Position numbers and translations under genes: made by a program. From contig JAZUHF010000041.1 of the NCBI GenBank assembly GCA_045641585.1, forward strand, positions 2,217 to 66,216: DNA of 64,000 nucleotides, in the 5' to 3' direction. The notes under the pieces are model-generated. The model was not told the origin of the DNA. It was given only the letters and a program-made list of their open reading frames with translations, and made no database searches. Below, in pieces: positions 9,524 to 36,519 of the stretch (position 1 is the stretch's first letter; every line of letters starts with the position of its first letter). The stretch comes from Acutalibacteraceae bacterium (GTDB lineage Bacteria > Bacillota > Clostridia > Oscillospirales > Acutalibacteraceae).

Positions 9524-9539
9524 ATTACGGAGGGACCCG

Positions 9540-13558: not shown

Positions 13559-13580
13559 CTATTAAAATCTCCTTTTGAAA

Positions 13581-13625
13581 TAAAAATCCCGCCTTGCTTG
13601 ATTTAATAATATCAAACAGGGTGGG
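13581..13625 (-). terminator. Terminator downstream of the small lipoprotein gene
   Basis: CCCGCCTTG...CAGGGTGGG stem (G-U pairs), T-tract on the minus strand. Confidence 0.5.
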
Positions 13626-15015: not shown

Positions 15016-16089
15016 TTATATTTCGATTTTGGAAAGTCCTGCATCGGCTAACATTTTTGAAAATTCTTTACCGGAGATTAGTCTTACATTATGGAGTGTC
15101 CCTTCTGCTTTTGCTTCTTCGGAAAAATCATCACAAGATGAAACAACCCAAGTTATATAGTTAAATCCGCCCTCACAGTCAATCCACAATTCGGAATCGG
15201 AATCTTCAAGTTGTTCTTTATAACGGATAATTTGTTTTACTGCAAAATCACTTGTTTCGTACTCATGTTTTTTTACTTGTATCAACACACAGACTTTCAG
15301 CGTATTAAAAAGTGCCACGACATCGGCATCAGCTTGGTCTTTTTTGCCGTGCTCGTTTTTAGCGGGAATATATACATAATCCGCACCGATACATTCCATA
15401 TAATTCTTTACAAGCATTTCAAAATTATCGGGGGTTAAAGCGGTGATGGCATTATATAGTGAACTCGCCGCACTTTCCAATGCGGTTTCGTAAAAATTGA
15501 TGGGTTTATTATCTTTGAAACCGTTTAACGCTTTTTTGACACTTACGGAAATGTCCGATATATCTCCGTTTGTTTGCCGCATTTTCATTCTTGCGGTTAG
15601 TTTGTTATCGGCATAATCCTTACGGGATATGCCATCCGCTAAAATCTCAACTTTTATGACAAATCCCAAATCAATACATTCGGTGCTGTTTTCTCTTTTT
15701 AATAATTTATTATTGTCGCACCATTTAACAAATTCGCCGGTTTTATCATAAAAATCTGCAATTTGCTCTTTGATTTCAAAAATCGGTTTTGCAATTTCCG
15801 CCACTTCACAAATTGAAAATTTACCGCCAAACAACGGTACCACTATAATATCGCCCACATTAAACTGTGCAAGATACCACATATCCCATCTTGACCGTTT
15901 TTTCTCATTCGGACGGTAATGATGATATGTATTTTCAAAAGCTTGATAATTATCGTCTTTGCGTGCATCATTCAAAATATCTGTTTCGGTAAAAGCCGAC
16001 CAGCCAAGTGATAAATAACCTTTTTCGTAAAGATAATATGACACCGCCCATTCGTGACTGATTCTGTGTAACCAATATTTCTTTTCCAT
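15016..16089 (-). CDS. Mrr-like (PD-(D/E)xK) restriction endonuclease with an uncharacterised N-terminal domain
   Basis: C-terminal ...FEMLVKNYMECIGADYVYIPAKNEHGKKDQADADVVALFNTLKVCVLIQVKKHE... matches the Mrr_cat D...(Q/E)xK core. N-terminal ~200 aa (YWLHRISHEW...GDIIVVP) may be a PUA/EVE-like reader (inference). Confidence 0.6.
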   Translation of the reverse strand: MEKKYWLHRISHEWAVSYYLYEKGYLSLGWSAFTETDILNDARKDDNYQAFENTYHHYRPNEKKRSRWDMWYLAQFNVGDIIVVPLFGGKFSICEVAEIAKPIFEIKEQIADFYDKTGEFVKWCDNNKLLKRENSTECIDLGFVIKVEILADGISRKDYADNKLTARMKMRQTNGDISDISVSVKKALNGFKDNKPINFYETALESAASSLYNAITALTPDNFEMLVKNYMECIGADYVYIPAKNEHGKKDQADADVVALFNTLKVCVLIQVKKHEYETSDFAVKQIIRYKEQLEDSDSELWIDCEGGFNYITWVVSSCDDFSEEAKAEGTLHNVRLISGKEFSKMLADAGLSKIEI

Positions 16090-16102
16090 AAATAGCAATT
16101 CC

Positions 16103-17152
16103 TCACTTATAATTCTCTACCGCCTCAATGAGGTCTTTTTTTATTGTCTCAACCAAACTTTTTGGTGTTAAGACGGTGATATGTCTTGCGTATTGAAGTG
16201 CCCAATTTCGCATTGCCTCATAATTTACGGTGGTGCGGACGGTCAGCTCGTCGTCGGTTTCGTCATAAAACTCAACATCTTTTCCGAACCAGTCAATAAT
16301 ATCGGCAACGATATACTTTTTTGCCCTGAATGTTACGGGAACACTCTCGCCGGCGAACATATAAATATGCTCCGCCATGTGTTTAGGCAGATTAAAACCG
16401 TTTTTTATTTCGGGCACATTTTTCTGCGGTTTTGCGGGGGTATCAAGCATTTTTATATTGGCTATTCTGTCAAGGCGGACATTCGCTACATCGTCATATC
16501 GGTCATAGTTGCAAATAAGATAATATTTTCCGTTTGTTGCTGCTATCTGATACGGATTTACGGTGTAAACCTTTTTGCATTTGTCCTCAAAGCTTTCGGT
16601 ATGAAGTTTTTTGTCAACGCCGTAATAGACATAGGAAAAAGAGATTTGCCTATGCTTACTTATTGCCTCGTCAATAACATCAATATTATAAAAAAGCTGT
16701 TTGTTTTGCGGAGAATTGTCAGGCATAGTGCTTATATGCTTTATCCTCGCCTTAAAATACTGATTTGAAAGCCCTGACAGTTTGCTGACAAGCTCTTTGC
16801 ACTGGCTATACGGAATATGCTTTGAAAAAATAAGACCGTCAATAAGTAAGCGCAGTTCACTGTCGGTAAACTCCCTTTCAAGATAAAAGTCGGATAGGAT
16901 ATAACTTTCCTCCATACCGCCGTCTTTTGAGGGAATCATACGAAGCGACTCGCTGTAATTGATGTCATAACCGAAGTCAATGAGGTTCATCAAATTCCGC
17001 TTGACCGACTTTCTGTCCGCTGTCATATTGTATTCGTTTTTTAGAATTTCAACGATTTCCTTTTGACTGAGCCGATGATTTTCATCGGTATATCTTTTTA
17101 AGATATCAAGAATGTTCATTATAAGCAGTTTTTTCGGTTGGGTTGTATACAT
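16103..17152 (-). CDS. HTH-WYL-WCX transcriptional regulator (BrxR/CapW-like architecture)
   Basis: 349 aa. N-terminal wHTH (ILDILKRYTDENHRLSQKEIVEIL). Central WYL-like ...FSYVYYGVDKKLH...YTVNPYQIAATNGKYYLICNYDRYDDVANVRLDRI. Confidence 0.75.
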   Translation of the reverse strand: MYTTQPKKLLIMNILDILKRYTDENHRLSQKEIVEILKNEYNMTADRKSVKRNLMNLIDFGYDINYSESLRMIPSKDGGMEESYILSDFYLEREFTDSELRLLIDGLIFSKHIPYSQCKELVSKLSGLSNQYFKARIKHISTMPDNSPQNKQLFYNIDVIDEAISKHRQISFSYVYYGVDKKLHTESFEDKCKKVYTVNPYQIAATNGKYYLICNYDRYDDVANVRLDRIANIKMLDTPAKPQKNVPEIKNGFNLPKHMAEHIYMFAGESVPVTFRAKKYIVADIIDWFGKDVEFYDETDDELTVRTTVNYEAMRNWALQYARHITVLTPKSLVETIKKDLIEAVENYK

Positions 17153-19660: not shown

Positions 19661-20171
19661 AGTAAGGAACAAGAATGAGTTTTATTGTCGAAGTTCACTT
19701 TAATTTAGTAATCTTTTAATAATATCGTAATTGTTTTCTTGAAATTGAAAACACAAGTAAGTTAAAAAGTAATTGTTGTTTTTATAAAAATGAAGGAGAG
19801 GTTACAATTACTTACACAAAAACGTTTGAAAAACCGAGTTTTTTTGCGATGAAAAAAATTAAATAAGATAGCATAGACAAATCGTATTAATCAAAACGAA
19901 TTTATGAAAACAAAATGAATAAAGTGGCGGCTCGTTATTTTTCAAGAAACTTAAGTCACCACTTGGTTTTTTACATAAAGTATGGTATAATAATTAGGTT
20001 AATAATTCCCATTTTTTCTATGTGTTTTTTAAGTATAAAAAAGGCGTAATTATGACCTTGTCTGGAACATTGCCAATTTTTGACAAAAAATACCAATGAA
20101 AAATGATGAAAAACCTTAAAATATGGTCTATAGTAATCGTAATAAAATCGTCAAAAAGGGGGGATTTTTGC

Positions 20172-20495
20172 GTGGGATCTTTCAAAATTCATTCTGATTT
20201 TAAGCCGACCGGCGACCAACCGCAGGCCATAGAGAAGTTAGTAGACGGTATCAATAACGGACTTAAAGAGCAGGTTTTGTTGGGTGTTACCGGCTCGGGA
20301 AAAACCTTTACTATGGCAAATATAATTGAAAAAGTCAACCGTCCGACACTTGTCCTTGCTCATAACAAAACTCTCGCCGCACAGCTTTGTTCTGAATTCA
20401 AAGAATTTTTCCCAAATAATGCGGTTGAATATTTTGTTTCCTACTTCCTATCCTATTGGCAAAACGCCCATTTTAAGCCGTTTTTTCGGGACTGA
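20172..20495 (+). pseudogene. uvrB: Displaced 5' fragment of uvrB (about the first 91 codons)
   Basis: GTG 20172 after AAAAGGGGGG. ...[82 protein letters not shown]. Homology stops at 20444 and the frame ends at 20495. Confidence 0.85.
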
Positions 20496-21919: not shown

Positions 21920-22070
21920 GTTTAGCCTCGATGAATTAGAAAAAACAATGCTACTTCACCGAGGTTATCTTTATATTCAGATTTTTGTGCATTTGTATTT
22001 TCAACGGCTTTCTTTTACAAGTCTTTTTTATATATGATAATCATAATGCCTACATAAATAAAATAAGATT

Positions 22071-22118
22071 TAACCCCTGTTCTTTGCTTAACACAAAGAA
22101 CGGGGTTAAATCATTTTA
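22071..22118 (+). terminator. Strong Rho-independent terminator after the DUF4238 gene
   Basis: TAACCCCTGTTCTTTG / AAAGAACGGGGTTAA stem followed by ATCATTTTA. Confidence 0.7.
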
Positions 22119-22122
22119 TGGT

Positions 22123-22148
22123 AACTTACAATAACTATTTATTATTGT
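22123..22148 (+). repeat. Left copy of a perfect 26-bp inverted repeat (AACTTACAATAACTATTTATTATTGT)
   Basis: Exact reverse complement occurs at 25741-25766 (checked base by base); lies 52 nt upstream of the ATP-grasp start codon. Confidence 0.9.
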
Positions 22149-22199
22149 AAGGTTATTAACAAAAGTCTCTTATCATTCATTGCATAACGGAGGAGCAGC

Positions 22200-23237
22200 A
22201 TGAAGTTTACTAAATTTTGGGATCAAGTACATGTGCCAGTTTCACAGTCAGAGTTAAATTTAGTACTTATTGCACATGTACGTGAACCACGCGGGAATAT
22301 AAATATTGCACAACTTCAGTGTAGCGAAACAGAGCGATTTTCTATAGATGAATTTAATGAAATATATCAAGGTATTGTTAGTGCGGGATACTTTGTACAA
22401 GCTGTCTATTTTAATGAAATTGATTTTATAACAGACTGTATCGAACATCAAGAACGTTATAAAAATAGCTTAATATATACTCTAGCAAGAAATGGATTAG
22501 GTGATAATAAAAAGACAATTATTCCCTCGTTCTGTGAATTAATTGGTTTGAGGTATACGACCTCATCTTCATTATCATGTGCATTAGCTCGTAACAAATA
22601 TTATTTTTCTTCATTATTTAATGCCCACAATGTACCAGTGCCTAAGAGTTGGTTATACACTGAAAACAAGATTTGGTTGAACGGAACACCTGAAACTGGT
22701 ACAAAGGTTATTTGTAAACCATCTTCCGAGTCCGCCAGTCAAGGAATAAATGAATCAAAAATTTTTGAATTTTCAACTGAACAAAGTGCTAATTTGTTAA
22801 ATGTAAGCCATATTGTTCAAGAGTATGTGGATGGTTTTGAGTGTGAGGTTCCTATATTAAAAGTGCAAGATACTATATATGTTTTACCACCAATTGGTAT
22901 TGACCTTAAAGGTAAGAAAATTTTGGATGAAGAGGCTTCTGACCATAATCAATATGGTTTTTACCAATTGGACAAACATTTTTCGTCAAAAACTATTGAT
23001 GCTATTCAAAACGCAGCAGAAAGGGCTTTCCGCTTACTACAGATGGATGTATATGGACGAATAGATTTCCGTATTTCAAAAAATGGACATCCATTTATTT
23101 TTGATGTATCTACGACACCATATACCACAAAACACAGTTCATTTGCTTATGCATTTGAACTGTTAGGATTTGAATACTGTGATATTTATCGTGCAATCAT
23201 TTCAGCAGCTTTAATGCGTGAACAAAACTACATTTAG
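22200..23237 (+). CDS. ATP-grasp enzyme, D-Ala-D-Ala-ligase-like
   Basis: 345 aa. Ddl-like order of motifs: ...LRYTTSSSLSCALARNKYYFSSLFNAHNVPVP..., VICKPSSESASQGI, VQEYVDGFECEVPIL, GRIDFRISKNGHPFIFDVSTTPY. Confidence 0.7.
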   Translation: MKFTKFWDQVHVPVSQSELNLVLIAHVREPRGNINIAQLQCSETERFSIDEFNEIYQGIVSAGYFVQAVYFNEIDFITDCIEHQERYKNSLIYTLARNGLGDNKKTIIPSFCELIGLRYTTSSSLSCALARNKYYFSSLFNAHNVPVPKSWLYTENKIWLNGTPETGTKVICKPSSESASQGINESKIFEFSTEQSANLLNVSHIVQEYVDGFECEVPILKVQDTIYVLPPIGIDLKGKKILDEEASDHNQYGFYQLDKHFSSKTIDAIQNAAERAFRLLQMDVYGRIDFRISKNGHPFIFDVSTTPYTTKHSSFAYAFELLGFEYCDIYRAIISAALMREQNYI

Positions 23238-25684
23238 AAAGATAAAAATTGCAAATCAGATAATAAAAAACCACGACCCCAGAAATAACATGAGTTGTCT
23301 TGAAGATGACTACATTTCGTACTAATAATACTATGATACATAAACGGATTACCAATAAATTCTGTAGCATTAGTTAATAGTTCTTCTTGAATAAATTGCC
23401 TTTTTTGAAGAATTACTCGATAGTGACGAAGAAGCGGAGGATCAAGTGATTTTAATTTCAATAGATTTTTTTTTGCACTCGTTACATCTCCTTTTAGCAA
23501 AGCATTCGCATAATTCAAATCATATAAATAGTATTGATAAAACTCATCAAGATTCGGAAGCAATCTATTTGCATTTAATAGCTCTGACTCCGTGGTATTT
23601 GTCTGACATAACATAGATAGGCCTATATAATTGAAAAGGATAACATGGGATACTTCATCGTACTGATACCGAATTATTTTAGAAAATCCACTAACAGCTT
23701 TCTGTGCTGCAAATAAGATTTTTTCTCTATCTCCGCAAGCGTTCTTTTCATCAATTAGATAATTTAGCAGTATTTCATTGTTTTCCACTTTGTATTGACT
23801 GGGATAATACCAACCATCGCTATTGTTAACCATTGAAATACACTCATTTATTGCATTCTTAGCAGTTTGGTATTCACCTAACACGATTGCATTGCCAGAA
23901 TGATTGCATAGAGCCATATATGTACCATTACGATTGAAATGCTTTTTATAAAACTGAATACTCTGTTCAGTTTGGCGACAAGCAATCATAGCTGTATAGT
24001 ATAAAGTAGCCTTCCGATTATAACATGCCTCAAATTCGTCAAATTCAGGAATTCCTATATGGTCTTGTATTATTCGAATAATCTTGTTTTTTAGGAGATT
24101 AACTTTTTTCTGATCATTTGAGCGATCGATATAAGCATCTAACAAAACTAATGCGGCTCGACAATATTGTTCATCTTCAAAACGACCAATATCTTCAATA
24201 GTGTTATAGAGTTCATTGGCAGATTGAACAATCTGTCCTAGATCCTCTGCTAACTGAATATGACATAAAAGAATAAGTCTTTGGCACTCGGCTAAGCATG
24301 CTGGAACGAGGCGACTAGGTGTTATAGCCTGGAAATGTATTAATGCATTTTTATAATTATATTTCACAAACTCTTGATAACCTTGGGTAAACTCAACCAA
24401 CACATGATGCTGTGTATCGATAGCGTTAGCAGGAAGACGATTGATGAGTTCTTCAATTTTTTCTAATATATTATAGACATCATCGGTATTTCCTGTTTCA
24501 ATTGAACGTCTAAAATATGCTAAAAGTAAGAGCTGCCATGCTTCCACAATTGTTTTCGTATCAGACAATTGTAAGCTTAAAGCTAAATGCTTCCCCCGGG
24601 AATAATAATCTTCAGGATGATTGTTTTGCAGAAATTCAGAAAATTTATGGTGATAATATCTTTCTTTTTTAGCCAGTTTAAATTTAAAATACTCTTTAAC
24701 TTTATCGTTAGCAAAAAGAAATCTGTTTTCACCTCTAATAAACATCTGTTCTTGTGCAAGTTGCAAATATTCTTCGGCAAGATATTCAGCTTCATATTTA
24801 TCATTGGGTGTAGGATCTAGGAAATAAGCCGCCTCATCTCTCGAAAAGTAACTTTCAATTATTGAGAGTGAACCTAGAATTTTACATATTCCTTGCTTTT
24901 CAATAGGCAAACTGTCGCATCTACGATCCATAATATCAATAAAATCATTTGCACATTTCCCGCCCTCTTTATAATAATTGGCTGTCATAAGAGCTAATGA
25001 TATATCATTACCAGCACAAATGCGTATATCTTTAATGCATATTTGTTCTGCGTGTCCATTTTCACGTAGTATATGCAATAAACTTTCATCTGGAATATTG
25101 GGAACCTTTATATTATACCAATGAACTGGAACTTGTATGGATATCTTGCTTTGAGCAATAATTAACACATTTAAATTATATTCAGATAATATCCCCAATT
25201 GTGGATCCATTATCTTTTGAAGCAACTGTTTTGAAGGAGTGTCCCATAATTCAAAGTTATCTGCAATAAAGAGAATCCTGTGTTCTGAACCTATCTGCTT
25301 CTTTATATTGGAAATAATGGCCTCCTCGCTTGAAGTTAAGATATAATTTGTTGAAGTTTTATTAATTGAAGTTCCAAATTCAAGTGAAATTGGAACTGGT
25401 AAAAAACTGATGCCAAATGAAATGTTGCTTTCGAGATTAAGTTTTGTTTTTGAATATAGCCTGGTGCCAATATGCCAAGTTAAATATGGAGATAAACTAG
25501 GATCAATCCCTTCAAGGCAAAAGATGGTCCACCCTTCGAGTAGTTGATTGGCCAAGCCTAGTGCAATAGTAGTTTTGCCGCTTCCAGCATCTCCATACAA
25601 TGTGATACCTTTATTTTTTTCATCACTCAATAATCTATTGTAAAGTTTGTCCACTAATTCCTGTTCAAAAACAGCTAAAGACAT
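23234..25684 (-). CDS. STAND-like P-loop NTPase with C-terminal helical (TPR-like) repeats and no recognisable effector domain
   Basis: 816 aa. Walker A GDAGSGKT at residues 31-38. Walker B ILFIADNFELWD. About 550 aa of alpha-helical repeats. Its stop codon overlaps the ATP-grasp stop (23234-23237). Confidence 0.65.
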   Translation of the reverse strand: MSLAVFEQELVDKLYNRLLSDEKNKGITLYGDAGSGKTTIALGLANQLLEGWTIFCLEGIDPSLSPYLTWHIGTRLYSKTKLNLESNISFGISFLPVPISLEFGTSINKTSTNYILTSSEEAIISNIKKQIGSEHRILFIADNFELWDTPSKQLLQKIMDPQLGILSEYNLNVLIIAQSKISIQVPVHWYNIKVPNIPDESLLHILRENGHAEQICIKDIRICAGNDISLALMTANYYKEGGKCANDFIDIMDRRCDSLPIEKQGICKILGSLSIIESYFSRDEAAYFLDPTPNDKYEAEYLAEEYLQLAQEQMFIRGENRFLFANDKVKEYFKFKLAKKERYYHHKFSEFLQNNHPEDYYSRGKHLALSLQLSDTKTIVEAWQLLLLAYFRRSIETGNTDDVYNILEKIEELINRLPANAIDTQHHVLVEFTQGYQEFVKYNYKNALIHFQAITPSRLVPACLAECQRLILLCHIQLAEDLGQIVQSANELYNTIEDIGRFEDEQYCRAALVLLDAYIDRSNDQKKVNLLKNKIIRIIQDHIGIPEFDEFEACYNRKATLYYTAMIACRQTEQSIQFYKKHFNRNGTYMALCNHSGNAIVLGEYQTAKNAINECISMVNNSDGWYYPSQYKVENNEILLNYLIDEKNACGDREKILFAAQKAVSGFSKIIRYQYDEVSHVILFNYIGLSMLCQTNTTESELLNANRLLPNLDEFYQYYLYDLNYANALLKGDVTSAKKNLLKLKSLDPPLLRHYRVILQKRQFIQEELLTNATEFIGNPFMYHSIISTKCSHLQDNSCYFWGRGFLLSDLQFLSF

Positions 25685-25740
25685 ATGTTCACCTCAGATC
25701 AACCTTGTGTAATAATGAAGAATCCTTTATAGATAATCTC

Positions 25741-25766
25741 ACAATAATAAATAGTTATTGTAAGTT
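25741..25766 (-). repeat. Right copy of the perfect 26-bp inverted repeat
   Basis: ACAATAATAAATAGTTATTGTAAGTT is the reverse complement of 22123-22148; lies 57 nt upstream of the NTPase start codon (25684). Confidence 0.9.
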
Positions 25767-25778
25767 CGTTATGTCCAT

Positions 25779-25807
25779 ATTATATCGTATTTTGGTAAAA
25801 TAATCAA
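25779..25807 (-). promoter_or_regulatory. Near-consensus sigma-A-type promoter just outside the right inverted repeat, reading into the NTPase gene
   Basis: Minus strand TTGATT (25807-25802), 17-nt spacer, TATAAT (25784-25779). Confidence 0.55.
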
Positions 25808-25833
25808 TATATTATCGAAATATGAGGTGCAAT

Positions 25834-26745
25834 ATGGAAAATTTAATTTTTATGTCGCAAAAATTCTTAAATGAAACGCAATCTACCAAAAACTTGTCCG
25901 ACAAAACAATAATTGCGTATCGTTCGGATTTGTCTGATTTTATCGGGTTTATAGGTGAAAAACAAATAGACAATTCAACAATAATTGAGTATGTAAAACA
26001 TTTATCAACTGAGCGTCAGTTACAAGGGAGCAGTATAAACCGAAAACTTGTGGTATTAAAAGTGTTTTTCGGGTTTTTATATAGCAACAATTACACAGAA
26101 GAAAACTTTTACAACTCACATATTTTTAAATTCAAAAAAGAACGAAAGTTGCCAAAAATCATAGCCACAAAAGATGCAGAAAGATTGTTAAAGCATTTAA
26201 AAAACGAAGCAGAGAAAGATATGGGAGATTATACTCATTGGTTGTCTTTGCGAAATTTGGCTTTGATAGATATTTTAATCAGTACCGGAATACGGATTGA
26301 AGAAGCATCTAATATAACGCTAAATGATATTTTTGCTACAGAAAGAACAATTTTGATTCACGGAAAAGGGAGAAAGCAACGGCTGATTTATATTTCATGC
26401 CCGGATACTTGGATTAACCTAACAAATTGGCTGAAATCTCGAAAACAGAGAGCCGTTTATACGGACAAAGTTTTTGTCAACCGTTACGGAAATAATATAA
26501 GTATACATGGAATAGAGTACATATTTAATTCAATAAAAAAGAAAAGCGGAATCAATGAAAAATCGACACCGCATTATCTCAGACATACCTTTGCAACAAA
26601 TTTATTGGCGAATGGGGCAGATTTACGCTCGGTACAGGAAATTTTAGGTCATAGTAGTGTCTCAACGACTGAAATCTATACTGAAGTAACAACAAAACGC
26701 AAAAAACAAGTATTGAACAAATACAATTACAGAAACAAATTATAA
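25834..26745 (+). CDS. Tyrosine site-specific recombinase (XerC/D-like)
   Basis: ATG 25834 after GAGGTG. SAM-like N-domain. C-terminal ...HYLRHTFATNLLANGADLRSVQEILGHSSVSTTEIYTEV (R..H-x-x-R...H...Y). Confidence 0.85.
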   Translation: MENLIFMSQKFLNETQSTKNLSDKTIIAYRSDLSDFIGFIGEKQIDNSTIIEYVKHLSTERQLQGSSINRKLVVLKVFFGFLYSNNYTEENFYNSHIFKFKKERKLPKIIATKDAERLLKHLKNEAEKDMGDYTHWLSLRNLALIDILISTGIRIEEASNITLNDIFATERTILIHGKGRKQRLIYISCPDTWINLTNWLKSRKQRAVYTDKVFVNRYGNNISIHGIEYIFNSIKKKSGINEKSTPHYLRHTFATNLLANGADLRSVQEILGHSSVSTTEIYTEVTTKRKKQVLNKYNYRNKL

Positions 26746-26833: not shown

Positions 26834-27442
26834 ATGAAACAAGAAAATAAAAGTTTTACAATCCGCCGTATATTTAAGGAACACAACAATGTCATGACAA
26901 CGGCTGAACTGAGCAACAACAAAATCTTTTACGCCGATATACAAAATCTTTTGAGGGATGGAAAAATCGAAAAGGTACGGCGTGGTTATTACCATTGCAT
27001 TGAAGATTTCGGCGGAAGTGAAGTATCTATTATCAATAGACTTTTTCCCGATGCGGTGTTGTGTATGGAAACGGCTTTGTTTTATTACGGTTACAGCGAC
27101 CGAAATCCTGCCGAGTGGAATATTGCGATTGATAAAAATACTTCACGATATCGTACAAAGATAGATTATCCGTTTATTAAAGATTATCGGCTTGATTCTG
27201 CAATAATCAAGTTGGGTGAGTCGCAAGGCACTATTGACGGAGAGCGTGTGCGGATATATGACAGAGAGCGGACGATATGCGATGTTCTCCATAATATGAG
27301 CAAAATGGATAAGGAAATTTTTAATAAAGCCATTATGAGCTATGTATATGACTCAAAAAAGAATATTCCGAATTTGCTCGAATACGCCAAAGTTTTGCGA
27401 GTAAGTAAAAAAGTCAAGGATTTGATAGGGGTGTGGTTGTAA
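26834..27442 (+). CDS. AbiEi-family type IV antitoxin / transcriptional regulator
   Basis: 202 aa; N-terminal wHTH ...MTTAELSNNKIFYADIQNLLRDGKIEKVRRGYYH... typical of AbiEi; TAATG overlap with the next gene. Confidence 0.7.
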   Translation: MKQENKSFTIRRIFKEHNNVMTTAELSNNKIFYADIQNLLRDGKIEKVRRGYYHCIEDFGGSEVSIINRLFPDAVLCMETALFYYGYSDRNPAEWNIAIDKNTSRYRTKIDYPFIKDYRLDSAIIKLGESQGTIDGERVRIYDRERTICDVLHNMSKMDKEIFNKAIMSYVYDSKKNIPNLLEYAKVLRVSKKVKDLIGVWL

Positions 27443-28275
27443 TGACGGATGTAGCGGCTTCGGTTTTGGCAAAACTCCGTAATAAAGCAAAGCAAAGCGG
27501 AATCAGTTATCAGCAATGCTTGCAGTTGTTTGTTCAAGAGGAATTTTTGCGTAAACTCTCTAAGTCCGGATGCTCGGAGCATTTGGTATTAAAAGGCGGA
27601 TTGTTTATTTATACGCTTACAAATTTTAAAAGCCGTGCAACCATTGATGCGGATTTTTTATTAAGAAATTATTCAAATACTGTAAATGATGTAAAGGCAC
27701 TTGTTGAAAAAATAATATATACGCCAACCGGCAACGATTATATTGTAATGAAAGCAAACGGCTTTGAAGAGATTTCTCCGCAAAGGAAATATCACGGAAT
27801 AAGCACACAAATTGTTTGTACGATAAAAAATGTTCGTGTTCCGTTTAATGTTGATATCGGCGTGGGTGATGTTATCGTGCCAGATGCAGAAGAACATCAA
27901 ATTATTACACAATTAGACGGATTTGAAACACCGGTTATTAAGACATATTCGCTTGAAAGTACTGTTGCAGAAAAATTTGATGCTATACTTCAACGCTTTG
28001 AACTTACCGGAAGAATGAAAGATTTTTATGATATATATTATCTTTCCAAAACTTATAAATTTGATGAAGAAAAATTGCGAAAAGCAATCTTTGAGACACT
28101 TAAAAGACGGGGTACACCCTATGATAAAGGCAGTTTTCACAGAATCATTTCACTTAAAGATGATCCGGACATGCTTAAAAAGTGGAAGTATTTTTTGAAG
28201 AATATTAAAGATGAAAATTTAGAGTTTGAAACTGTTATTGATGGAATACAGGCTTTTCTGGAGCCGATATTATAA
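27442..28275 (+). CDS. AbiEii/AbiGii-family nucleotidyltransferase toxin (DUF1814)
   Basis: ...ASVLAKLRNKAKQSGISYQQCLQLFVQEEFLRKL...LVLKGG...IDADF... N-terminal signature of AbiEii. Confidence 0.7.
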   Translation: MTDVAASVLAKLRNKAKQSGISYQQCLQLFVQEEFLRKLSKSGCSEHLVLKGGLFIYTLTNFKSRATIDADFLLRNYSNTVNDVKALVEKIIYTPTGNDYIVMKANGFEEISPQRKYHGISTQIVCTIKNVRVPFNVDIGVGDVIVPDAEEHQIITQLDGFETPVIKTYSLESTVAEKFDAILQRFELTGRMKDFYDIYYLSKTYKFDEEKLRKAIFETLKRRGTPYDKGSFHRIISLKDDPDMLKKWKYFLKNIKDENLEFETVIDGIQAFLEPIL

Positions 28276-28366
28276 GTTTTTAAACAAAAAATGTTTTTGT
28301 GTATTGATTTATGTTTTAAATTTGATATATAATTATCATAAGTATTAATAGAGAGGACATAATATT

Positions 28367-29578
28367 ATGTGCGAAGAAACAATGCAAAATTCACTTGATA
28401 ATAACAAAGAAAACTTTGTTGAAATTTCTAGTTTTGACACTGAAGTGATATTTGATAATGAAGATGATCAACTAAATCCATCAGCTAATTCAAATAATGA
28501 AAGGGTTTATCCTGTGAAATCAATAAAAGTAGAACGAGGATTTTACACTACATTTGAACTAAAAAGAAAATACGATAAACAACCTTCATTGGTAATACTA
28601 GATAGCGATTTTCAACGGGAAAATGTTTGGAAACTTCAGCAAAAAAGAGAATTGATTGAAAGCATATTAATGGGATTACCATTGCCTATTTTTTATTTTA
28701 ACGAAGATAAAATGGGAAAACTAATAGTTATAGATGGTCGGCAAAGATTAGATGCGATTTTTTCGTATATGAATGGAGATTTTGCTCTAGATAAATTGAA
28801 AATATTAGATGAATTTAATAAAAAAAAGTTTAAGGATCTTGACCCGATTTATCAATCCAAAATTGAAGACTATCAAATAATGGCGCATGTAATACAACCG
28901 GCAACTCCAGATAGGGTTAAATTTGATATTTTTGATAGAGTTAACCGTGCGGGGACACAATTGAACAAGCAGGAAATTCGTAATGCTTTATATCAGGGCA
29001 AATCCACATTATTATTGAATAGATTGTGTAACTCTAATGAATTTAATGAAGCAACAGAAAATTATTTTTTAAAAGATACTCGTATGAAAAACAGATATTT
29101 GTTATTGAGATTTATTGCTTTTTATTTACTGTTTAATAAAAAAATATATAAAAGAAATGGAAGTCAAAATGAGTTGTATTCATATAATGGTGATATTGAT
29201 GAGTTATTAGGATTAGCCATGGAATTCTTAAATAATTGTAGTGATTATGAAATAGATCAAATTGAAAAAACAACAATAATAGCTTTAACTCAAATAACAT
29301 TTTATTTGGGTTATAACGCTTTTAGGTTGTTAGATGTTAACAAAGATGGAACTATAAAACGTTATCCTATAAATATCAATATTTTTGAATGTTTTATGTA
29401 TGCTATGACTCTTTTGCCGATTAAAAATCATCAAATAAAAGATAAAGTTATGAATTACTTTAGTGATTTGAAAAACGATATAGAATTTAGAGAAAGTTTG
29501 AATAATCATCGTGATAGTGATGTCAAAGTGAAATTAAGAAGTGATAAAATAAATAAAATAGTGGGTGATTTTTTATGA
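28367..29578 (+). CDS. DUF262 (ParB/GmrSD-N-like) domain protein
   Basis: ...DSDFQRENVWKLQQKRELIESILMGLPLPIFYF...LIVIDGRQRLDAIFSY...NRAGTQLNKQEIRNA; no HNH/DUF1524 tail seen. Confidence 0.7.
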   Translation: MCEETMQNSLDNNKENFVEISSFDTEVIFDNEDDQLNPSANSNNERVYPVKSIKVERGFYTTFELKRKYDKQPSLVILDSDFQRENVWKLQQKRELIESILMGLPLPIFYFNEDKMGKLIVIDGRQRLDAIFSYMNGDFALDKLKILDEFNKKKFKDLDPIYQSKIEDYQIMAHVIQPATPDRVKFDIFDRVNRAGTQLNKQEIRNALYQGKSTLLLNRLCNSNEFNEATENYFLKDTRMKNRYLLLRFIAFYLLFNKKIYKRNGSQNELYSYNGDIDELLGLAMEFLNNCSDYEIDQIEKTTIIALTQITFYLGYNAFRLLDVNKDGTIKRYPININIFECFMYAMTLLPIKNHQIKDKVMNYFSDLKNDIEFRESLNNHRDSDVKVKLRSDKINKIVGDFL

Positions 29579-30603
29579 TAAATAAAGTGCATATAACAAA
29601 TTTTAAAAGTATTTCGGATTTGATTGTGTATTGTAATAAATTAAATATTATTGCTGGTGCAAATTCATCTGGAAAATCAACATTCATACAAAGCTTGTTA
29701 CTTATGCAACAAAACAATAAAACTAATATGGGATTAAATGGAGAATTTATCAAACTTGGCAATTACAAAGATATAAAAAATTTCAATTTAAATTCTCAAA
29801 AAACATCTATAGAAATAGATGATTCTAAAATCGTTTTTTCAGATGAAGGTATAATAGTTAATGATTTTTTAGATAAAGGAAATAATTCTGAAAATCCTAA
29901 TATATGTCCAACAATTAATTACCTATCTTGCGAAAGAATAGGGCCAGAAGATATTTATAAAAAAAATTACCATAGTGATGTTAATGTTGGAATGGATGGG
30001 GAGTTTGCTATTTATGTTTTAGATAAAAATAAGGATATCCCCTTGTCTAAAGAATTAATATGTGATAATAATTCATTTACATTGGGAAATCAAGTGAATT
30101 ATTGGCTTAAATATATTTTGGGAGCTACAATTGTAACAGAAGATATTATTGGTACAGATTTTGTAAAATGTTTTTTTTCAGTTGCAGGTGAAAAACTTAT
30201 TCGGCCAAAAAATGTTGGTGCGGGATTTAGTTACCTTGTAAGTATTATTGTTATGTGTTTGTTATGTAAGGAAAATGATGTTGTAGTGATCGAAAATCCC
30301 GAAATACATCTCCATCCAAATGCTCAATCGAAAGTTTGTGAATTCTTGTATTTTATTTCTTCACACAATCGTCAAGTTTTTGTTGAAACTCATAGTGACC
30401 ACATATTTAACGGTGTTAGAGCTGGAATAGCAAGTGAGAAAATGGAATCTGAGACAATAGCAATTGATTTTTTTACTATGAATGATAAATATTGCACAGA
30501 AAATAATATTATTAAAGTCGGAAAAAGAGGACGAATTAGCAATTGCCCAAACGGTTTATTTGATCAATTTGATATTGATTTAAATCGTATGCTCAATATT
30601 TAG
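29575..30603 (+). CDS. ABC/SMC-type ATPase (AAA_15/21, DUF3696-like)
   Basis: ITNFKSISDL...IIAGANSSGKST (Walker A), VVVIENPEIHLHP (Walker B/D-loop), ETHSDH (H-loop); 4-nt overlap with the DUF262 gene. Confidence 0.7.
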   Translation: MINKVHITNFKSISDLIVYCNKLNIIAGANSSGKSTFIQSLLLMQQNNKTNMGLNGEFIKLGNYKDIKNFNLNSQKTSIEIDDSKIVFSDEGIIVNDFLDKGNNSENPNICPTINYLSCERIGPEDIYKKNYHSDVNVGMDGEFAIYVLDKNKDIPLSKELICDNNSFTLGNQVNYWLKYILGATIVTEDIIGTDFVKCFFSVAGEKLIRPKNVGAGFSYLVSIIVMCLLCKENDVVVIENPEIHLHPNAQSKVCEFLYFISSHNRQVFVETHSDHIFNGVRAGIASEKMESETIAIDFFTMNDKYCTENNIIKVGKRGRISNCPNGLFDQFDIDLNRMLNI

Positions 30604-30612
30604 GAATGTGCT

Positions 30613-31518
30613 ATGGAAATAATATTAAATGACTATTCAATTGATTCTCAGTTTGATAGTGTGGAATCTTTCGTTGATTCATTAGTTGAGTATACATTGC
30701 CTTTATTAGATATACTAAAGAGCAAAGAGTTTTATATATTGAAAAGGTATGATTCATACAATTTAAAAATCACATCCGATTTATCACTTTATGATTTTTT
30801 AAAGTTGAATAAATACAATGCATATGCAGAAACTCAAAAAATGAAATCACTGCTGGTTTCATTAAGTGATGAACCTTATTGGCAAGATAATAATAGGACG
30901 GACCAAAAATCTGTTTATAAAACCGAATTTACTGGGGAGTTTTATGGTAGTAGTCCGAATTGTTTTTCGGAGGCTTTAGAAAGAGATAAGATTGTTTTTT
31001 CATTTGAAAAAGAAAATTTTAAGAGAAAAACATTAAAAATACTTAAAAATAATATTGATTTTGAATTACATAATTTTTATGATTCAATTAATACTTTTGA
31101 TTTTCTTTATGAGAAGAGCTATATTTCTTTTTCCGAATTGCTTTTGGGATACAATAATAGTCTTAAAATTTCATTCTTTTGTTTGAATGGTTCGGTAATA
31201 ATAGATAATGAGTTTGATGATTCCAATTTGACCATTGATGATGCTTACTCAATTAAAAGAGATTTTTGTAAATGGATAGAGGGAATTGAATATGACAATA
31301 TGTTGCCTAGATTAACGGATTCAATTAAATATAAAGATATAACTTATAATGAGTTTAGAACAACTTTAAAAAATAGTAGAGAGTTTAGGATGTTTTATAA
31401 ATTAATAGACAATACATATGTATTTTTTAATTTGTTATTAAAAAAATCAGAAGCAACTCCTATGAATACAAAGAAAAGAACATATGATTTGATAAAACAT
31501 TATTATAAAACGGACTAA
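30613..31518 (+). CDS. Hypothetical protein with a C-terminal RelE/ParE-superfamily (Gp49/HigB-like) module
   Basis: 301 aa. Last ~65 aa are ...YNEFRTTLKNSREFRMFYKLIDNTYVFFNLLLKKSEATPMNTKKRTYDLIKHY. They follow the Gp49-type pattern W-E-L-R...R-I-x-F-x...h-h-L-L-x-x-F-x-K-K-[TS]-x-x-T-P...E-I-x-x-A. N-terminal ~235 aa unassigned. Confidence 0.5.
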   Translation: MEIILNDYSIDSQFDSVESFVDSLVEYTLPLLDILKSKEFYILKRYDSYNLKITSDLSLYDFLKLNKYNAYAETQKMKSLLVSLSDEPYWQDNNRTDQKSVYKTEFTGEFYGSSPNCFSEALERDKIVFSFEKENFKRKTLKILKNNIDFELHNFYDSINTFDFLYEKSYISFSELLLGYNNSLKISFFCLNGSVIIDNEFDDSNLTIDDAYSIKRDFCKWIEGIEYDNMLPRLTDSIKYKDITYNEFRTTLKNSREFRMFYKLIDNTYVFFNLLLKKSEATPMNTKKRTYDLIKHYYKTD

Positions 31519-32088: not shown

Positions 32089-33237
32089 TTGAAAAGCAAT
32101 AAATCCAAACCTTTTTATCGTTGTGGTTCATGGTATCACAGAACAAAATTTTTAAGAGATGATTTCACAGTGGGATACGGTAAGAAAGGAGGATATGCAA
32201 CCGCCGAAGAGGCGGAGAAAGGGAAAATTATTATGGATAAATTATTTGAAGAGCAAAAGAATAATGTGTTTGGTAAACAAACAATGTTGTTATCTGAATT
32301 TTTAGAAGATTGGTTTTACAATATTCAGTGTAACAAAATCAGTTCAGCTTGCAAAATGAACATGGAGCATACCTTGAAACAGTGGATTATGCCGTTTGTA
32401 GGAGATATTGAACTGAATCAGTGCAATACGGAATATATCGACCAATTACTCGAAAAAGCATCAACGCTAACGACCACATCAGCCGAAAAAGCAAGAGAAG
32501 TATTAAGCATCGCTTTTAATTTTGCCTATCAAAACAACTTGATTGATAGGAATCCTGTAAAACAGGCAAAAAAATATTCTCATACTAAGAAACCGTTAAA
32601 AGTTTTAAGTGATGATGAAATCAAGAGATTTTTGCTGTGTGCTTCTGCAAATTCACGGTTTTTGGAGATTTTGTTAGCACTGTTTTGCGGATTGTCAAGA
32701 GCGGAAATCTACGGTCTTAAATTTTCGGACTTTGATTGGGATGCCAAAACCTTAACGGTATCAAGAGAAATTGTTCAGGATAAGAAGTTTGATGCAGAAA
32801 AGCAAAAGGAAATTTACTGTTCCAAAGTTCAAGAATTGCACACACAAAACAATCACAGAACTCTTGCCGTGCCGGATATTATATTCGATGAACTGAGCAA
32901 AAGAGAAGTAATGATTGAGGCAAATAAAATGCGGTATCAGCCGTATTATGACGAGGATTACATTTGTTGCCAAAAGGACGGAAAAACACCGGCATTAAGT
33001 TTGCTCAACGATGCACTTTCTGCAATTTGCAAAAAATCAAAACTTGGCTCGATTACGGTACAAGACCTCAGAAATACCTATGCCGTTCGCTTTTTGAATG
33101 ACTTTGGGACTTTACAGGAATTATCTCTAAATTTAGGGTACAGCAGTATAAAAACGACTGATGAGCGATATGGGAATTTTTCGAGAAAACCTCAATCCGC
33201 CAAGGAAATTATTGATTCAATATTTAAGGTGAGTTGA
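32089..33237 (+). CDS. Tyrosine integrase (phage-integrase family) with N-terminal arm-type DNA-binding domain
   Basis: 382 aa; TTG start after AAGGAG; ...GLSRAEIYGLKFSDF..., ...VQDLRNTYAVRFL..., ...LGYSSIKTTDERYG. Confidence 0.8.
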   Translation: MKSNKSKPFYRCGSWYHRTKFLRDDFTVGYGKKGGYATAEEAEKGKIIMDKLFEEQKNNVFGKQTMLLSEFLEDWFYNIQCNKISSACKMNMEHTLKQWIMPFVGDIELNQCNTEYIDQLLEKASTLTTTSAEKAREVLSIAFNFAYQNNLIDRNPVKQAKKYSHTKKPLKVLSDDEIKRFLLCASANSRFLEILLALFCGLSRAEIYGLKFSDFDWDAKTLTVSREIVQDKKFDAEKQKEIYCSKVQELHTQNNHRTLAVPDIIFDELSKREVMIEANKMRYQPYYDEDYICCQKDGKTPALSLLNDALSAICKKSKLGSITVQDLRNTYAVRFLNDFGTLQELSLNLGYSSIKTTDERYGNFSRKPQSAKEIIDSIFKVS

Positions 33238-33240
33238 GTG

Positions 33241-34419
33241 ATGACGAGTAATTGTTATGTGGATTTCAAAATAAGCGGTGTAATAAAAATCAAAGGGAAA
33301 TATGGCTTTCGCATTTACTTAAAATTAACCGACGGAAGCAAAACAACAAAACAGCATTCCGGTTTTGAAACCAGAAAGGCGGCAAGTGAAGCAAGAGATA
33401 AAGCGGTGGCGGAACTGTATACACATACTTATGTTCTTAACAAGAAGTTGACGGTATCGGAATATTTGGATGATTGGTTGGAAAGCGAAATCAAAAAAAC
33501 CAAAAGATCTGCTACTTATTCGACCTATTACTATTGTATTAAAAATAATATTGCACCCTATATCGGCAAAATCAAGCTTTGTGAGTTGAGCCGTCTTCAT
33601 ATCAATTACTTGTATGAAAAGGTGAGTAAAGAATCGTATTCAAATGCAAAAATGGTAAGGAACATTCTGAAAACTTCATTGAAACACGCAAACGACCGGC
33701 AGCAGATATCTTCAAATCCCACGGAGGGTATCTGCTTGCCAAAGCGGTCGCATAATGATAATAAACCGCAAAAAACCTTGACGGCAGAACAAGTGGGAAT
33801 ACTCATTGAAAATGCTAAAGGCACCAAAATATATTTATTTGTTCTTTTTGCGGCATTGATGGGTTTAAGGCGAGGAGAGATATTAGGACTAAAATATGCG
33901 GATGTAGATTTTGAAAATCACACCATTCACATCACACGCCAATTGGGAAAAGATGTTAATAAGTCGGCACCTGTCAAAAATGTTACAAAGCAGGAAATAC
34001 CGCTTAAAACAAATTCGTCCAATCGGATAATAGCTATGCCGGATTTAGTGTATGAGGCGGTAATTAAGGAAAGAACACTATATGAAAAGCACCGCAACAA
34101 AAGAAAGAAAACCTTTGTTGATGCCGATTATATCTGCTGTTCGACCTACGGCAGACCAAGAAGTCCGGCATTTGTGTATCAACCGTTTAAGGAACTCTTA
34201 AAAAAGTGCAGTTTGCCGGATATCCGTTTTCACGATTTAAGGCATACTTGTGCCACTATTCTTTTTGAAAACGGGGTAGATATGCAGGTTATCTCGGATA
34301 CACTCGGTCATTCAAAACCGTCAATGTCATTTGATGTGTACGGAGATAAAACCCGTATGCAAATTGTAAGAATGAGTTGGATTAACGGATTAAACGAATA
34401 TGTGGGTAAAGTGTTATAG
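33241..34419 (+). CDS. Second tyrosine integrase, paralogous to the upstream one
   Basis: ...GLRRGEILGLKYADVDF..., ...RFHDLRHTCATILFENGVDMQVISDTLGHSKPSMSFDVYG; starts 4 nt after the previous stop. Confidence 0.8.
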   Translation: MTSNCYVDFKISGVIKIKGKYGFRIYLKLTDGSKTTKQHSGFETRKAASEARDKAVAELYTHTYVLNKKLTVSEYLDDWLESEIKKTKRSATYSTYYYCIKNNIAPYIGKIKLCELSRLHINYLYEKVSKESYSNAKMVRNILKTSLKHANDRQQISSNPTEGICLPKRSHNDNKPQKTLTAEQVGILIENAKGTKIYLFVLFAALMGLRRGEILGLKYADVDFENHTIHITRQLGKDVNKSAPVKNVTKQEIPLKTNSSNRIIAMPDLVYEAVIKERTLYEKHRNKRKKTFVDADYICCSTYGRPRSPAFVYQPFKELLKKCSLPDIRFHDLRHTCATILFENGVDMQVISDTLGHSKPSMSFDVYGDKTRMQIVRMSWINGLNEYVGKVL

Positions 34420-34554
34420 AAAACTTTATGAAAGTCTTTTTTTTAATAAGAAACTGTGGTATAATAGTCTTAAATAAAAAAATGACTTTTTTCGTCCAAA
34501 GCACATTTTATACATATTTAACTTGATTTATTGATTAAAAAGAGAGGAGGGCAA

Positions 34555-36519
34555 ATGCCAATGGATAAATTTGAAATCGTATCAAAATTTAAGCCGACGG
34601 GAGACCAACCGCAAGCCATTGAGAAGTTAGTAGACGGTATCAACAAAGGGCTGAAAGAACAAGTATTATTGGGCGTTACAGGCAGTGGTAAGACTTTTAC
34701 GATGGCTAATGTAATTGCCAAAGTCAACAGACCAACGCTGATATTAGAGCCAAATAAGACATTGGCTGCCCAAATCTGTTCAGAACTCCGTGAATTTTTC
34801 CCTAATAGTGAAGTTGCCTTCTTTGTATCCTATTATGACTACTACCAACCCGAAGCGTATATACCTGGCACTGACACATATATAGAAAAAGATTCGGCGA
34901 TTAACGATGAGATTGATAAATTAAGGCACAGTGCAACCTGCGCACTCTCTGAAAGACGGGATGTTATAATTGTTGCTTCTGTTTCCTGCATATATTCGCT
35001 CGGAAGTCCTATTGATTATCGAAATATGGTCATTTCTTTGCGTAAAGGAATGGCGAAAAACCGAGATGAACTTATAAAGAAACTTGTTGATTTACAGTAT
35101 GAGCGAAACGATGTAAATTTTGTGCGTAATAAATTCCGTGTTCGCGGCGATGTTGTGGATGTTTTTCCGGCATACTCATATGAAAACGCAATACGCATTG
35201 AGTTTTTCGGCGATGAAATTGACAGAATTTGCGAAGTCAACGCACTTACCGGCGAAATTAAAGGTATTGTAAATCATGTTGCAATCTATCCTGCATCACA
35301 TTATATTGTCCCGCAGGATAAATTAGAGGATGCCTTGAAAGAATTAAAGGAAGAAATGGAAGAACGTGTGGAGTTTTTCAATGAAAACGGAAAGCTCATT
35401 GAAGCGCAGAGGATAAGGCAACGCACCGAATATGATATTGAAATGCTCCGTGAAGTCGGCACCTGCAAGGGAATTGAAAACTATTCCCGTGTTTTATCAA
35501 GGCGGCCTAAAGGCAGTGTGCCCTCGACATTGCTTGATTATTTTCCTGATGATTTTTTGCTTTTTGTTGATGAATCTCATGTGACTTTGCCACAGGTTCG
35601 GGGTATGTTCGGCGGCGATAGGGGAAGAAAGGAAAATCTTGTTGATTTTGGGTTCAGACTTCCGTCTGCTTTTGATAACCGTCCGCTTAATTTTAATGAG
35701 TTTTACAGTCATATAAATCAGGCAGTATTTGTTTCGGCAACTCCGGGCGATTTTGAAAAAGAGCACGCCGCTTCAATTACCGAGCAGGTTATAAGACCTA
35801 CGGGACTTTTAGACCCGATGGTTATTGTAAAACCGTCTGAGGGACAAATTGACGATTTGATTTCCGAAATAAATAAGCGAACTGCTAAAAATGAGAGAGT
35901 GCTTGTTACCACTCTTACCAAGAAGATGGCGGAGGATCTTACGGAGTATCTCGAAAATCTTGAAATCAAAGTCCGATATATGCATTATGATATTGACACT
36001 ATTGAGCGTATGGAGATAATAAGAGACTTAAGACTCGGCGAATTCGATGTTTTGGTCGGTATCAATTTATTAAGAGAGGGACTTGATATACCCGAAGTAT
36101 CGCTTGTTGCAATTCTTGATGCCGATAAGGAAGGCTTTTTGCGAAGTGAAACCTCACTCGTTCAAACAATCGGCAGAGCCGCGCGAAACGCAGACGGCAC
36201 CGTAATAATGTATGCCGACAGTGTCACTCGTTCAATGGAGTCTGCAATAAAGGAAACCGAACGCCGTCGCAATATTCAGCAAAAATACAATGAAGAACAC
36301 GGCATTGTCCCGAAAACAATTTTAAAGGATGTCCGTGATATTATTGAAATCGGTTCAAAGGTTGAAAACAATAAGCCCGATAGTAAACTGTCCCGCGCAG
36401 AAAGGGAAGAACTTATTAAGCGCTTAACCCGTGAAATGCAGCAAGCGGCAAAAATTCTTGAATTTGAACATGCCGCCGCTTTGCGTGACAGAATAAATAA
36501 ACTAAGGGGTAAAAAATAG
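34555..36519 (+). CDS. uvrB: Excinuclease ABC subunit B (UvrB), full length, probably with an island-derived 5' end
   Basis: ATG 34555 after [30 protein letters not shown], helicase motifs and C-terminal UVR domain ([17 protein letters not shown]) all present. Confidence 0.95.

Follow-up and report, generated by a model that had tools for sequence, protein, structure and literature searches.

Two unrelated genes lie tail to tail between perfect inverted repeats in a 64,000-nt stretch of the genome of an Acutalibacteraceae bacterium (contig JAZUHF010000041.1 of assembly GCA_045641585.1; hereafter the window), with a tyrosine recombinase gene next to them and a promoter-like sequence on one side. 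This arrangement raises the question of whether the locus, at positions 22123-25766, is a DNA switch in which the inversion of a whole two-gene cassette decides which of the two genes is transcribed. A first-pass annotation of the window had proposed such a recombinase-driven inversion, and this proposal is supported by the flips that we found in relatives of the locus and by a recurrent design of promoter and terminator flanks. Accordingly, we consider the locus to be a recombinase-operated expression-site switch, with a probability of about 0.75.

On direct sequence comparison, 22123-22148 is the exact reverse complement of 25741-25766, confirming the annotated 26-bp inverted repeat, and the likeness between the two copies runs on inward to 49 nt at 84%. 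The 3,592 bp between the perfect repeats (22149-25740), which form the invertible segment, hold only two real open reading frames (ORFs), and these are convergent. One encodes an ATP-grasp ligase of the Ddl fold (345 residues; 22200-23237, plus strand) and the other a STAND-type P-loop NTPase with a C-terminal TPR-like helical arm (816 residues; 23234-25684, minus strand). The two stop codons overlap (TTA at 23234-23236, for reading on the minus strand, and TAG at 23235-23237), and the start codons lie 52 nt inside the left copy for the ATP-grasp gene and 57 nt inside the right copy for the NTPase gene, so that an ORF check reproduced the gene layout as it had been annotated.

We compared the window with related cassettes retrieved from public genome and metagenome contigs (the L-numbered loci below), whose homologous segments measure 3.58-3.64 kb. 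All loci examined have the ATP-grasp gene together with the NTPase gene, as far as an NTPase identity of about 32% to the window, and the co-occurrence holds to 36-37% ATP-grasp identity versus the most divergent query copy. The only exceptions are deletion or insertion-sequence variants. The annotation had reasoned that homologues never found together elsewhere would argue against a functional pair, and the opposite is the case. The recombinase, NTPase and ATP-grasp genes are a three-gene module that travels together, mostly in defence islands and mobile elements.

Each window repeat is a near-palindrome in which 10-bp arms flank an asymmetric 7-bp spacer, CTATTTA. The left recombination site (22123-22151, plus strand) contains the perfect repeat at 22123-22148 and a core at 22125-22151 that reads CTTACAATAA-CTATTTA-TTATTGTAAG, and the right site (25738-25766, minus strand) contains the perfect repeat at 25741-25766 and a core at 25738-25764 that reads CTTACAATAA-CTATTTA-TTATTGTGAG on the minus strand; the inner arms differ at one position (TAAG versus TGAG). 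Whether the sites are inverted or direct with respect to each other is set by the spacer, together with the bases flanking the core, and not by the arms. This 10-7-10 layout is the anatomy of a tyrosine-recombinase core site, and the window presents two such cores in inverted orientation with an identical 7-bp spacer, within the 6-8 bp of tyrosine-recombinase inversion. The pattern CTTACAATAA-N7-TTATTGTAAG, allowing up to three mismatches, occurs twice in the whole window against 0.02 occurrences expected.

The same type of site recurs outside the window. An ATAA-N7-TTAT core is present 5′ of both genes, 12-97 nt from the start codons, in nearly all related loci. About 20 different 7-bp spacers are found across lineages, and the partner sites within one locus are always identical in spacer. 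Such covariation is explained by strand exchange, which requires the spacers of the partners to match, as an operator would not. Where partner sites do differ, the outer arm belongs to the flank and the inner one travels with the segment. In the Paenibacillus isolates L067, L069 and L070, the inner arm TTATTTGGAGG also holds the Shine-Dalgarno sequence of both genes.

Direct evidence for inversion comes from the relatives: in at least seven lineages the segment was found in both orientations, with flanks that are near-identical (98.5-100%), so the comparison of homologous loci that the annotation had suggested gives a positive answer at the nucleotide level. The lineage closest to the window (NTPase 86% and recombinase 63% identical) has the same CAATAA-N7-TTATTG site type. 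There, locus L004 has the order flank A, site, NTPase/ATP-grasp, site, flank B. In L005 flank B is instead continuous with the NTPase end of the segment, and in L006 flank A is continuous with the ATP-grasp end, both at 100% identity to L004; therefore, both recombinant junctions are seen in this lineage. Blautia obeum and its relatives (WP_114002655.1) share an identical 3,583-bp segment, bounded by a 28-bp repeat, that lies either way round between the same flanks; among the fetched loci, the NTPase faces the promoter-side flank in eight and the ATP-grasp does so in five. Further flip pairs are L019/L020, L021-25 versus L032/L045, L036/L038, L042/L048, L026/L027 and L062 versus L063/64/66, and of three Paenibacillus isolate genomes, two have the NTPase and one has the ATP-grasp facing the recombinase-side arm.

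Contigs also tend to break at the sites. L003 starts and stops at the outer edges of the repeats, and L006, L007, L033, L037, L046 and L052 start or end at a repeat. The longest contig measures 3,551-3,717 bp in 44 of the 120 NTPase clusters, and for the Blautia protein it reaches only 2-5 kb in 338 of 648 sequence-collection blocks. Logan graphs use k = 31, so repeats of 25-29 bp alone would probably not break contigs. We dropped L061 (3,689 bp) as evidence of heterogeneity, since it is a metagenome record whose repeat of about 59 bp would break short-k assembly anyway. The end of the public metagenome contig L018 (about 5016-5074) was ignored as an assembly artefact, since a Nextera transposase adapter (TGTGTATAAGAGACAG) has been joined to the recombination site there.

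Several variants of the cassette were seen among the flipping lineages. In L026, L027, L028 and L031 a deletion joins a site, of which 4 nt of the inner arm are left, to about codon 145 of the NTPase gene. This deletion, at about 5990-6020 in L026/L027, removes the P-loop and Walker B and leaves the ATP-grasp intact, and the segment still flips at 99.9% identity. In this lineage the switch would thus be an ON/OFF switch for the ATP-grasp alone. In L062-L066 (the P0076 lineage) the flip takes place across a 43-bp repeat between 99.95%-identical flanks; most contigs of this lineage are long, which suggests that switching is rarer there. Finally, a DDE_3 transposase insertion in the Blautia metagenome contig L009 (8451-10640) truncates the ATP-grasp gene and removes one site, presumably locking the cassette.

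An expression-site switch also depends on what lies outside the sites. On the right, a fixed promoter, TTGATT-17-TATAAT (25807-25779, minus strand), matches the consensus and reads via the right site into the cassette. Promoter-like matches in the region are overall not above chance (18 versus 22.6 expected), and because consensus matches alone are at chance level, the significance of this promoter rests on comparative data. Identical hexamers with identical spacing are found on the recombinase-side flank of L019/L020 and of L027. Furthermore, 11 of 35 flanks have a promoter scoring at least 10/12 within 80 nt of the site, compared with about 0.9 expected (null probability 0.019-0.027 per flank at this threshold), which substantiates the promoter that had been annotated. 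A near-consensus sigma-70 promoter is located 5-36 nt outside the site in the window, L001, L002, L019/L020, L027, L033, L036, L037, L042/L048, L052 and L053; that of L043 is weaker (9/12), and that of L068 has an extended -10 element.

No locus in which both flanks are visible has a promoter of at least 10/12 on both of them. In the window, no near-consensus promoter was found outside the left copy, and an internal promoter is not expected because the 12-97 nt between site and start codon are too short to hold one. The best promoter is outside the site, not inside the segment as in an inverton. The left flank has a bidirectional intrinsic terminator instead (22067-22112), with a hairpin of -26.3 kcal/mol on the plus strand (z -7.3) and -28.6 kcal/mol on the minus strand (z -8.5), whose minus-strand tail is U-rich. 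The hairpin is bulged and is missed by a simple terminator scan, so that its strength is taken from RNA folding; folding bears out the strong terminator of the annotation and adds that it works in both directions. It is predicted to insulate the cassette from upstream transcription, and it is placed to stop a minus-strand transcript leaving the cassette. Terminators are found on the equivalent flank in L001, L024/L045, L043, Blautia (here on the recombinase side) and L068, as in the window, and the terminator scan found none at the convergent gene junction. Collectively, one promoter flank and one insulated flank, whatever the side of the recombinase, appears from these predictions to be the conserved rule across loci.

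The presumed invertase is encoded at 25834-26745 on the plus strand (alternative start 25822), divergent from the promoter. It matches Pfam Phage_integrase (1e-37) and has a SAM-like N-terminal domain, in line with the XerC/D-like tyrosine recombinase annotated beside the right copy, and in an alignment to XerD (1a0p) all catalytic residues (R, K, HxxR, H, Y) are present. Identity as the XerC/XerD chromosome-dimer resolvase was rejected, as the protein stays below the NCBIfam equivalog cut-offs (233 versus 335 bits for XerC and 219 versus 330 bits for XerD).

In most related loci a recombinase gene adjoins the cassette, with varying side and direction. The recombinases fall into two clades: clade A contains those of the window, L004 and Paenibacillus (43-63% mutual identity), and clade B those of the remaining loci (46-60% mutual identity), with about 30-36% identity between the two clades. 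The site arms are AATAA/TTATT in loci with a clade-A recombinase and GGATAA/TTATC in those with a clade-B one, and the clade follows the type of site arm, not the cargo, given that 86%-identical cargo is found with either clade (L004, L019). Therefore, the recombinase and its sites have been replaced as a pair around like cargo while the invertible design was kept. L001 has two core sites in tandem, one per recombinase-clade type, within a 48-bp repeat (9917-9964 and 13535-13582), and degenerate relics of a second site are seen inside the UTR (untranslated region) of L024 (ATP-grasp side, about 9500-9580) and of L061 (at its ends); these look like footprints of such a replacement. The covariation of clade and site, together with the conserved adjacency, gives indirect support for the recombinase as the invertase, and we presume that the neighbouring enzyme catalyses the inversion.

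Under the model that we favour, the recombinase would bind the two inverted core sites and invert the 3.6-kb segment, which carries two promoter-less convergent genes whose 5′ UTRs start in the sites. The gene facing the fixed right-side promoter would be transcribed, and the same transcript would run antisense through the other gene and end at the far terminator. In the orientation of the window, the NTPase faces the promoter and is predicted to be ON, and the ATP-grasp, facing the terminator flank, is predicted to be OFF; a flip would reverse both. Provided that the window copy flips as its relatives do, the outcome would be a population split into two heritable and reversible states with mutually exclusive expression, that is, phase variation.

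Several observations weigh against this model. Exact-protein look-ups with the window ATP-grasp, recombinase and NTPase gave no other assembly, and hence no flipped copy of the window itself. Three lineages flip or persist without a nearby recombinase gene; these include L062 (L062-L066 have none within 5 kb of the cassette) and, in the available sequence, L001 (none within 10 kb to the left or 1.6 kb to the right). Flipping without a nearby gene means that the enzyme can act in trans, as would be implied for L062-L066, and adjacency is therefore no proof of cognate function. The promoters and terminators were predicted from consensus matches or folding energies, and in L024 no strong promoter was called. 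Furthermore, the model leaves the alternate expression of two unrelated enzymes without an explanation, and a role of the cassette as a defence system would be drawn from its context.

Other points of this kind concern the tightness of the OFF state, and they are best considered along with the rival that they favour most. The promoter flank of Blautia and of L004 is an upstream gene reading into the cassette; the second flank of L004 has a moderate promoter (TTCAAT-18-TATAAT), giving this locus promoter-like sequences on both sides; and the clade-B outer arm GGATAAT holds a -10-like GATAAT, which together with flank sequence could drive weak transcription of the OFF gene. In the Paenibacillus isolates L067, L069 and L070, only 10-26 nt separate the stop codon of the recombinase gene from the site that follows it, so that the recombinase is probably co-transcribed with whichever gene faces it. 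These features would fit a switch of ratio rather than of state, in which both genes are always transcribed, one from a strong flank and one from a weak or read-through flank, and a flip alters the proportion of NTPase to ATP-grasp. We regard this as unlikely, though less so than the other rivals, given the absence of a second strong promoter wherever both flanks are visible and the strong terminators that several non-promoter flanks have directly outside the site; antisense read-through from the strong promoter would, moreover, suppress the other gene further. That the window copy is a frozen relic of an inverting family, locked with the NTPase on, seems less likely still. Only one orientation is known and the inner arms have the one mismatch, but the perfect 26-bp repeat takes in outer arm, spacer and most of the inner arm, the ORFs of the recombinase (with its full catalytic set) and of both cargo genes are intact, and the far more damaged sites of L026/L027 still flip.

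Two further rivals do away with inversion as the function of the repeats. The annotation had offered, as its alternative, a shared operator for a dimeric regulator of both convergent genes, with a window copy that does not invert. Each copy is indeed a near-perfect palindrome between promoter and start codon, the classic position of an operator, and an alternative orientation of the exact window sequence is not documented. However, homologous sites of the same type demonstrably recombine, spacers covary between partners, the promoter is beside only one of the two sites, and the conserved neighbour in the module is a recombinase, with no transcription factor; an operator is not needed and leaves the flips in relatives unexplained, which makes it very improbable. 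The repeats might otherwise be the terminal inverted repeats of a small mobile cassette, the contig breaks then reflecting different contexts of insertion, as could be argued from the many unrelated neighbourhoods of the module and from contigs that often stop at the repeats. We judge this the least probable reading of all, since every flip pair has the same two flanks exchanged, the recombinase gene, which is outside the repeats, travels with the module, neither target-site duplications nor empty sites were seen, and the family has no matches in viral contigs. A toxin-antidote reading of the two genes was also tried and rejected. Each gene faces the promoter in dominant assemblies, and L027, with a dead NTPase, tolerates ATP-grasp ON; as an NTPase without its first ~145 codons still flips together with an intact ATP-grasp, neither gene is a toxin that needs the other.

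The expression-site switch thus remains our preferred explanation, and what it would alternate is best described from the two proteins. The ATP-grasp matches Pfam Dala_Dala_lig_C (4e-17; 62.8 bits versus a cut-off of 24) and reaches 91 bits with NCBIfam Ddl models, about a third of their cut-off of 243. In a Foldseek comparison, its confident AlphaFold model (mean predicted local distance difference test score, pLDDT, 87.5) reaches template-modelling scores of 0.7-0.8 with Ddl structures that are 18-19% identical in sequence. Four ATP/Mg residues of Escherichia coli DdlB, K144, R255, D257 and E270, are kept as K173, R287, D289 and D302, which are invariant in the family, and the usual Asn Mg ligand is Ser304; the fold and the conserved Lys, Arg and acidic Mg ligands place the protein in the ATP-grasp superfamily. 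The D-Ala and omega-loop residues, in contrast, are replaced in a family-invariant way (S150 by A179, K215 by S247, N272 by S304, G276 by Y308 and L282 by S314), and Y216 of DdlB is D or E in the family, so that S150, K215, Y216 and L282 as well as the family score all depart from those of a D-Ala-D-Ala ligase. With the D-Ala-binding residues replaced and so low a family score, D-Ala-D-Ala is not the substrate. The protein has the three-domain ATP-grasp fold and the ATP/Mg residues in common with Ddl and Van ligases, unlike which it lacks the D-Ala-specific residues and falls far under the Ddl cut-off; on this residue comparison it shares the Ddl fold but is no D-Ala-D-Ala ligase. Among distant relatives in the family (178 clusters), the fusion partners gave a single weak hint, a C-terminal GNAT acetyltransferase in P0380 that would point to small-molecule or amino-acid chemistry.

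The NTPase matches the Pfam families nSTAND5, AAA_16 and NB-ARC, all below threshold, and its Walker A (G33/G35/K36) and Walker B (D141) residues are conserved. The top Foldseek matches of its AlphaFold model (pLDDT 84.3) are 6mfv (STAND and TPR, E 1e-10), followed by Apaf-1, Avs3 and plant NLRs. The Walker A/B core, the helical and winged-helix modules and the repeat arm are those of a STAND NTPase, an assignment based on Foldseek, with the Pfam STAND models sub-threshold. No effector domain was found in the model or with Pfam, as the core begins at residue 1 and the P-loop at residue 30. The protein resembles Avs and other bacterial NLR-like STAND sensors in its STAND core and helical-repeat sensor arm; unlike them, it does not have the fused effector of the Avs type, has no PADLOC model match and would never be co-transcribed with its partner gene. 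Residues 67-113 form an insert in the P-loop domain that is conserved in sequence and disordered in the AlphaFold model (pLDDT below 30), and the C-terminal tail at residues 802-815 (GRGFLLSDLQFLSF) is invariant; both are candidate partner- or substrate-binding elements.

The surroundings of the cassette are rich in defence genes, as the annotation had described. Directly to the right of the recombinase, at 26834-30603, are AbiEi/AbiEii (PADLOC 2.5e-68 and 1.1e-86) and NsnA/NsnB (3.8e-97 and 1.3e-93). Beside NsnA/NsnB, a 301-residue ORF (30613-31518) without a Pfam match might, from its position, be a third Nsn component. A 130-residue ORF at 20103-20495, a displaced uvrB fragment, repeats the N-terminus of the intact gene (34531-36519) at 71% identity, and two phage-type integrases lie at 32089-34419, immediately upstream of uvrB. 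From this arrangement, the region at about 20.5-34.5 kb looks like an integrative island of about 14 kb at the 5′ end of uvrB, with a DUF4238 gene, the invertible module, AbiE and NsnAB as cargo. Just left of the island (15016-17152), a protein with an Mrr_cat restriction-endonuclease domain lies beside a WYL/WCX regulator, which may be another defence gene pair.

Elsewhere the module adjoins DarTG, AAA_21, HNH/methylase and Fic genes, and it is also found in a polysaccharide-biosynthesis locus (NeuB and glycosyltransferases; L062-L066) and among glycogen genes. In the Paenibacillus isolates L067, L069 and L070 the context is housekeeping genes, with no defence island. A scan of viral contigs with the NTPase profile gave no matches. 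With PADLOC 2.0 the ATP-grasp had no match and the NTPase only a marginal one (mad8, E 0.007), and no system was called for either, in line with the annotation, which had been unable to assign the pairing to a named defence system. Its link between an ATP-grasp ligase and a STAND sensor holds for co-occurrence; as a pair acting through simultaneous expression it does not, since alternate expression argues against it.

The switch mechanism itself, expression-site inversion, is known. In Mycoplasma agalactiae, inversion of the vpma genes is run by Xer1. Variable lipoprotein genes of Mycoplasma, vsp of M. bovis, and UU172/UU171 and MBA/UU376 of Ureaplasma are likewise subject to expression-site inversion (PMC3047005). 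These loci resemble the window cassette in having a Xer-like recombinase beside the locus, short sites 5′ of promoter-less genes and one active promoter, so that inversion connects a silent gene to the promoter and expression alternates. They differ in that the mycoplasma loci alternate paralogous surface antigens, altering what the host immune system sees, whereas the window cassette has exactly two unrelated cytoplasmic enzymes, tail to tail, in walled Firmicutes and often in defence islands.

The geometry of the cassette is also that of the G segment of phage Mu and the C segment of P1, which are about 3 kb long with inverted repeats, convergent alternative genes, an outside promoter and an adjacent invertase (Gin/Cin). 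Gin, a serine invertase, depends on an enhancer and on Fis, and the alternatives are homologous tail fibres with a constant 5′ coding part; the window has, in contrast, a tyrosine recombinase, sites in the 5′ UTRs and non-homologous cargo. Invertons (fimS/FimBE, Clostridioides difficile RecV, Bacteroides capsular polysaccharide loci) share tyrosine-recombinase inversion, short repeats and phase variation in the gut. However, they invert a promoter inside a segment of about 200-700 bp while the genes stay fixed, whereas in the window cassette 3.6 kb of genes are turned round beside a fixed promoter, and surveys of short intergenic segments for invertons have probably missed a cassette of this size.

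Closest to defence are the hsdS shufflons of type I restriction-modification systems, which, according to a survey of programmed inversions, are inversions in defence loci with an adjacent recombinase and a bet-hedging role (PMC9881135). As described there, they recombine within coding sequence and yield chimeric alleles, unlike the window cassette, whose coding sequence is untouched. On targeted reading, that survey does not mention ATP-grasp or NTPase cargo (PMC9881135) and a 2026 STAND survey does not mention the module, and full-text literature searches found no published description of it. What is new is the cargo, two unrelated cytoplasmic enzymes alternately expressed.

Taken together, these results extend a form of variation that usually concerns surface structures, restriction specificity or small invertible promoters to a whole two-gene cytoplasmic cassette that flips between an NLR-like STAND NTPase and a Ddl-like ligase. 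Bet-hedging between two alternative and separately tolerated activities would make sense in a context of conflict. We tentatively go one step further, to a view against which the odds still lie somewhat, in which the cassette is an unrecognised and widespread phase-variable conflict module of Firmicutes. Its exclusive states, a sensor (the NTPase) and an enzyme (the Ddl-like ligase, perhaps making or modifying a peptide or cell-envelope-type compound), would be incompatible or costly together and would jointly protect the population against phages and mobile elements, the design being selected strongly enough to bring about non-orthologous replacement of recombinase and sites. The replacement around conserved cargo does show selection for invertibility as such. 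Abundant commensals of the human gut commonly carry the module, with one Blautia protein present in 648 collection blocks, and its range reaches Paenibacillus; in gut metagenomes it systematically causes assemblies to break. It is a candidate for a new conflict system, not recovered by PADLOC defence models, and offers a case in which the bistable expression of an immune-type sensor can be tested.

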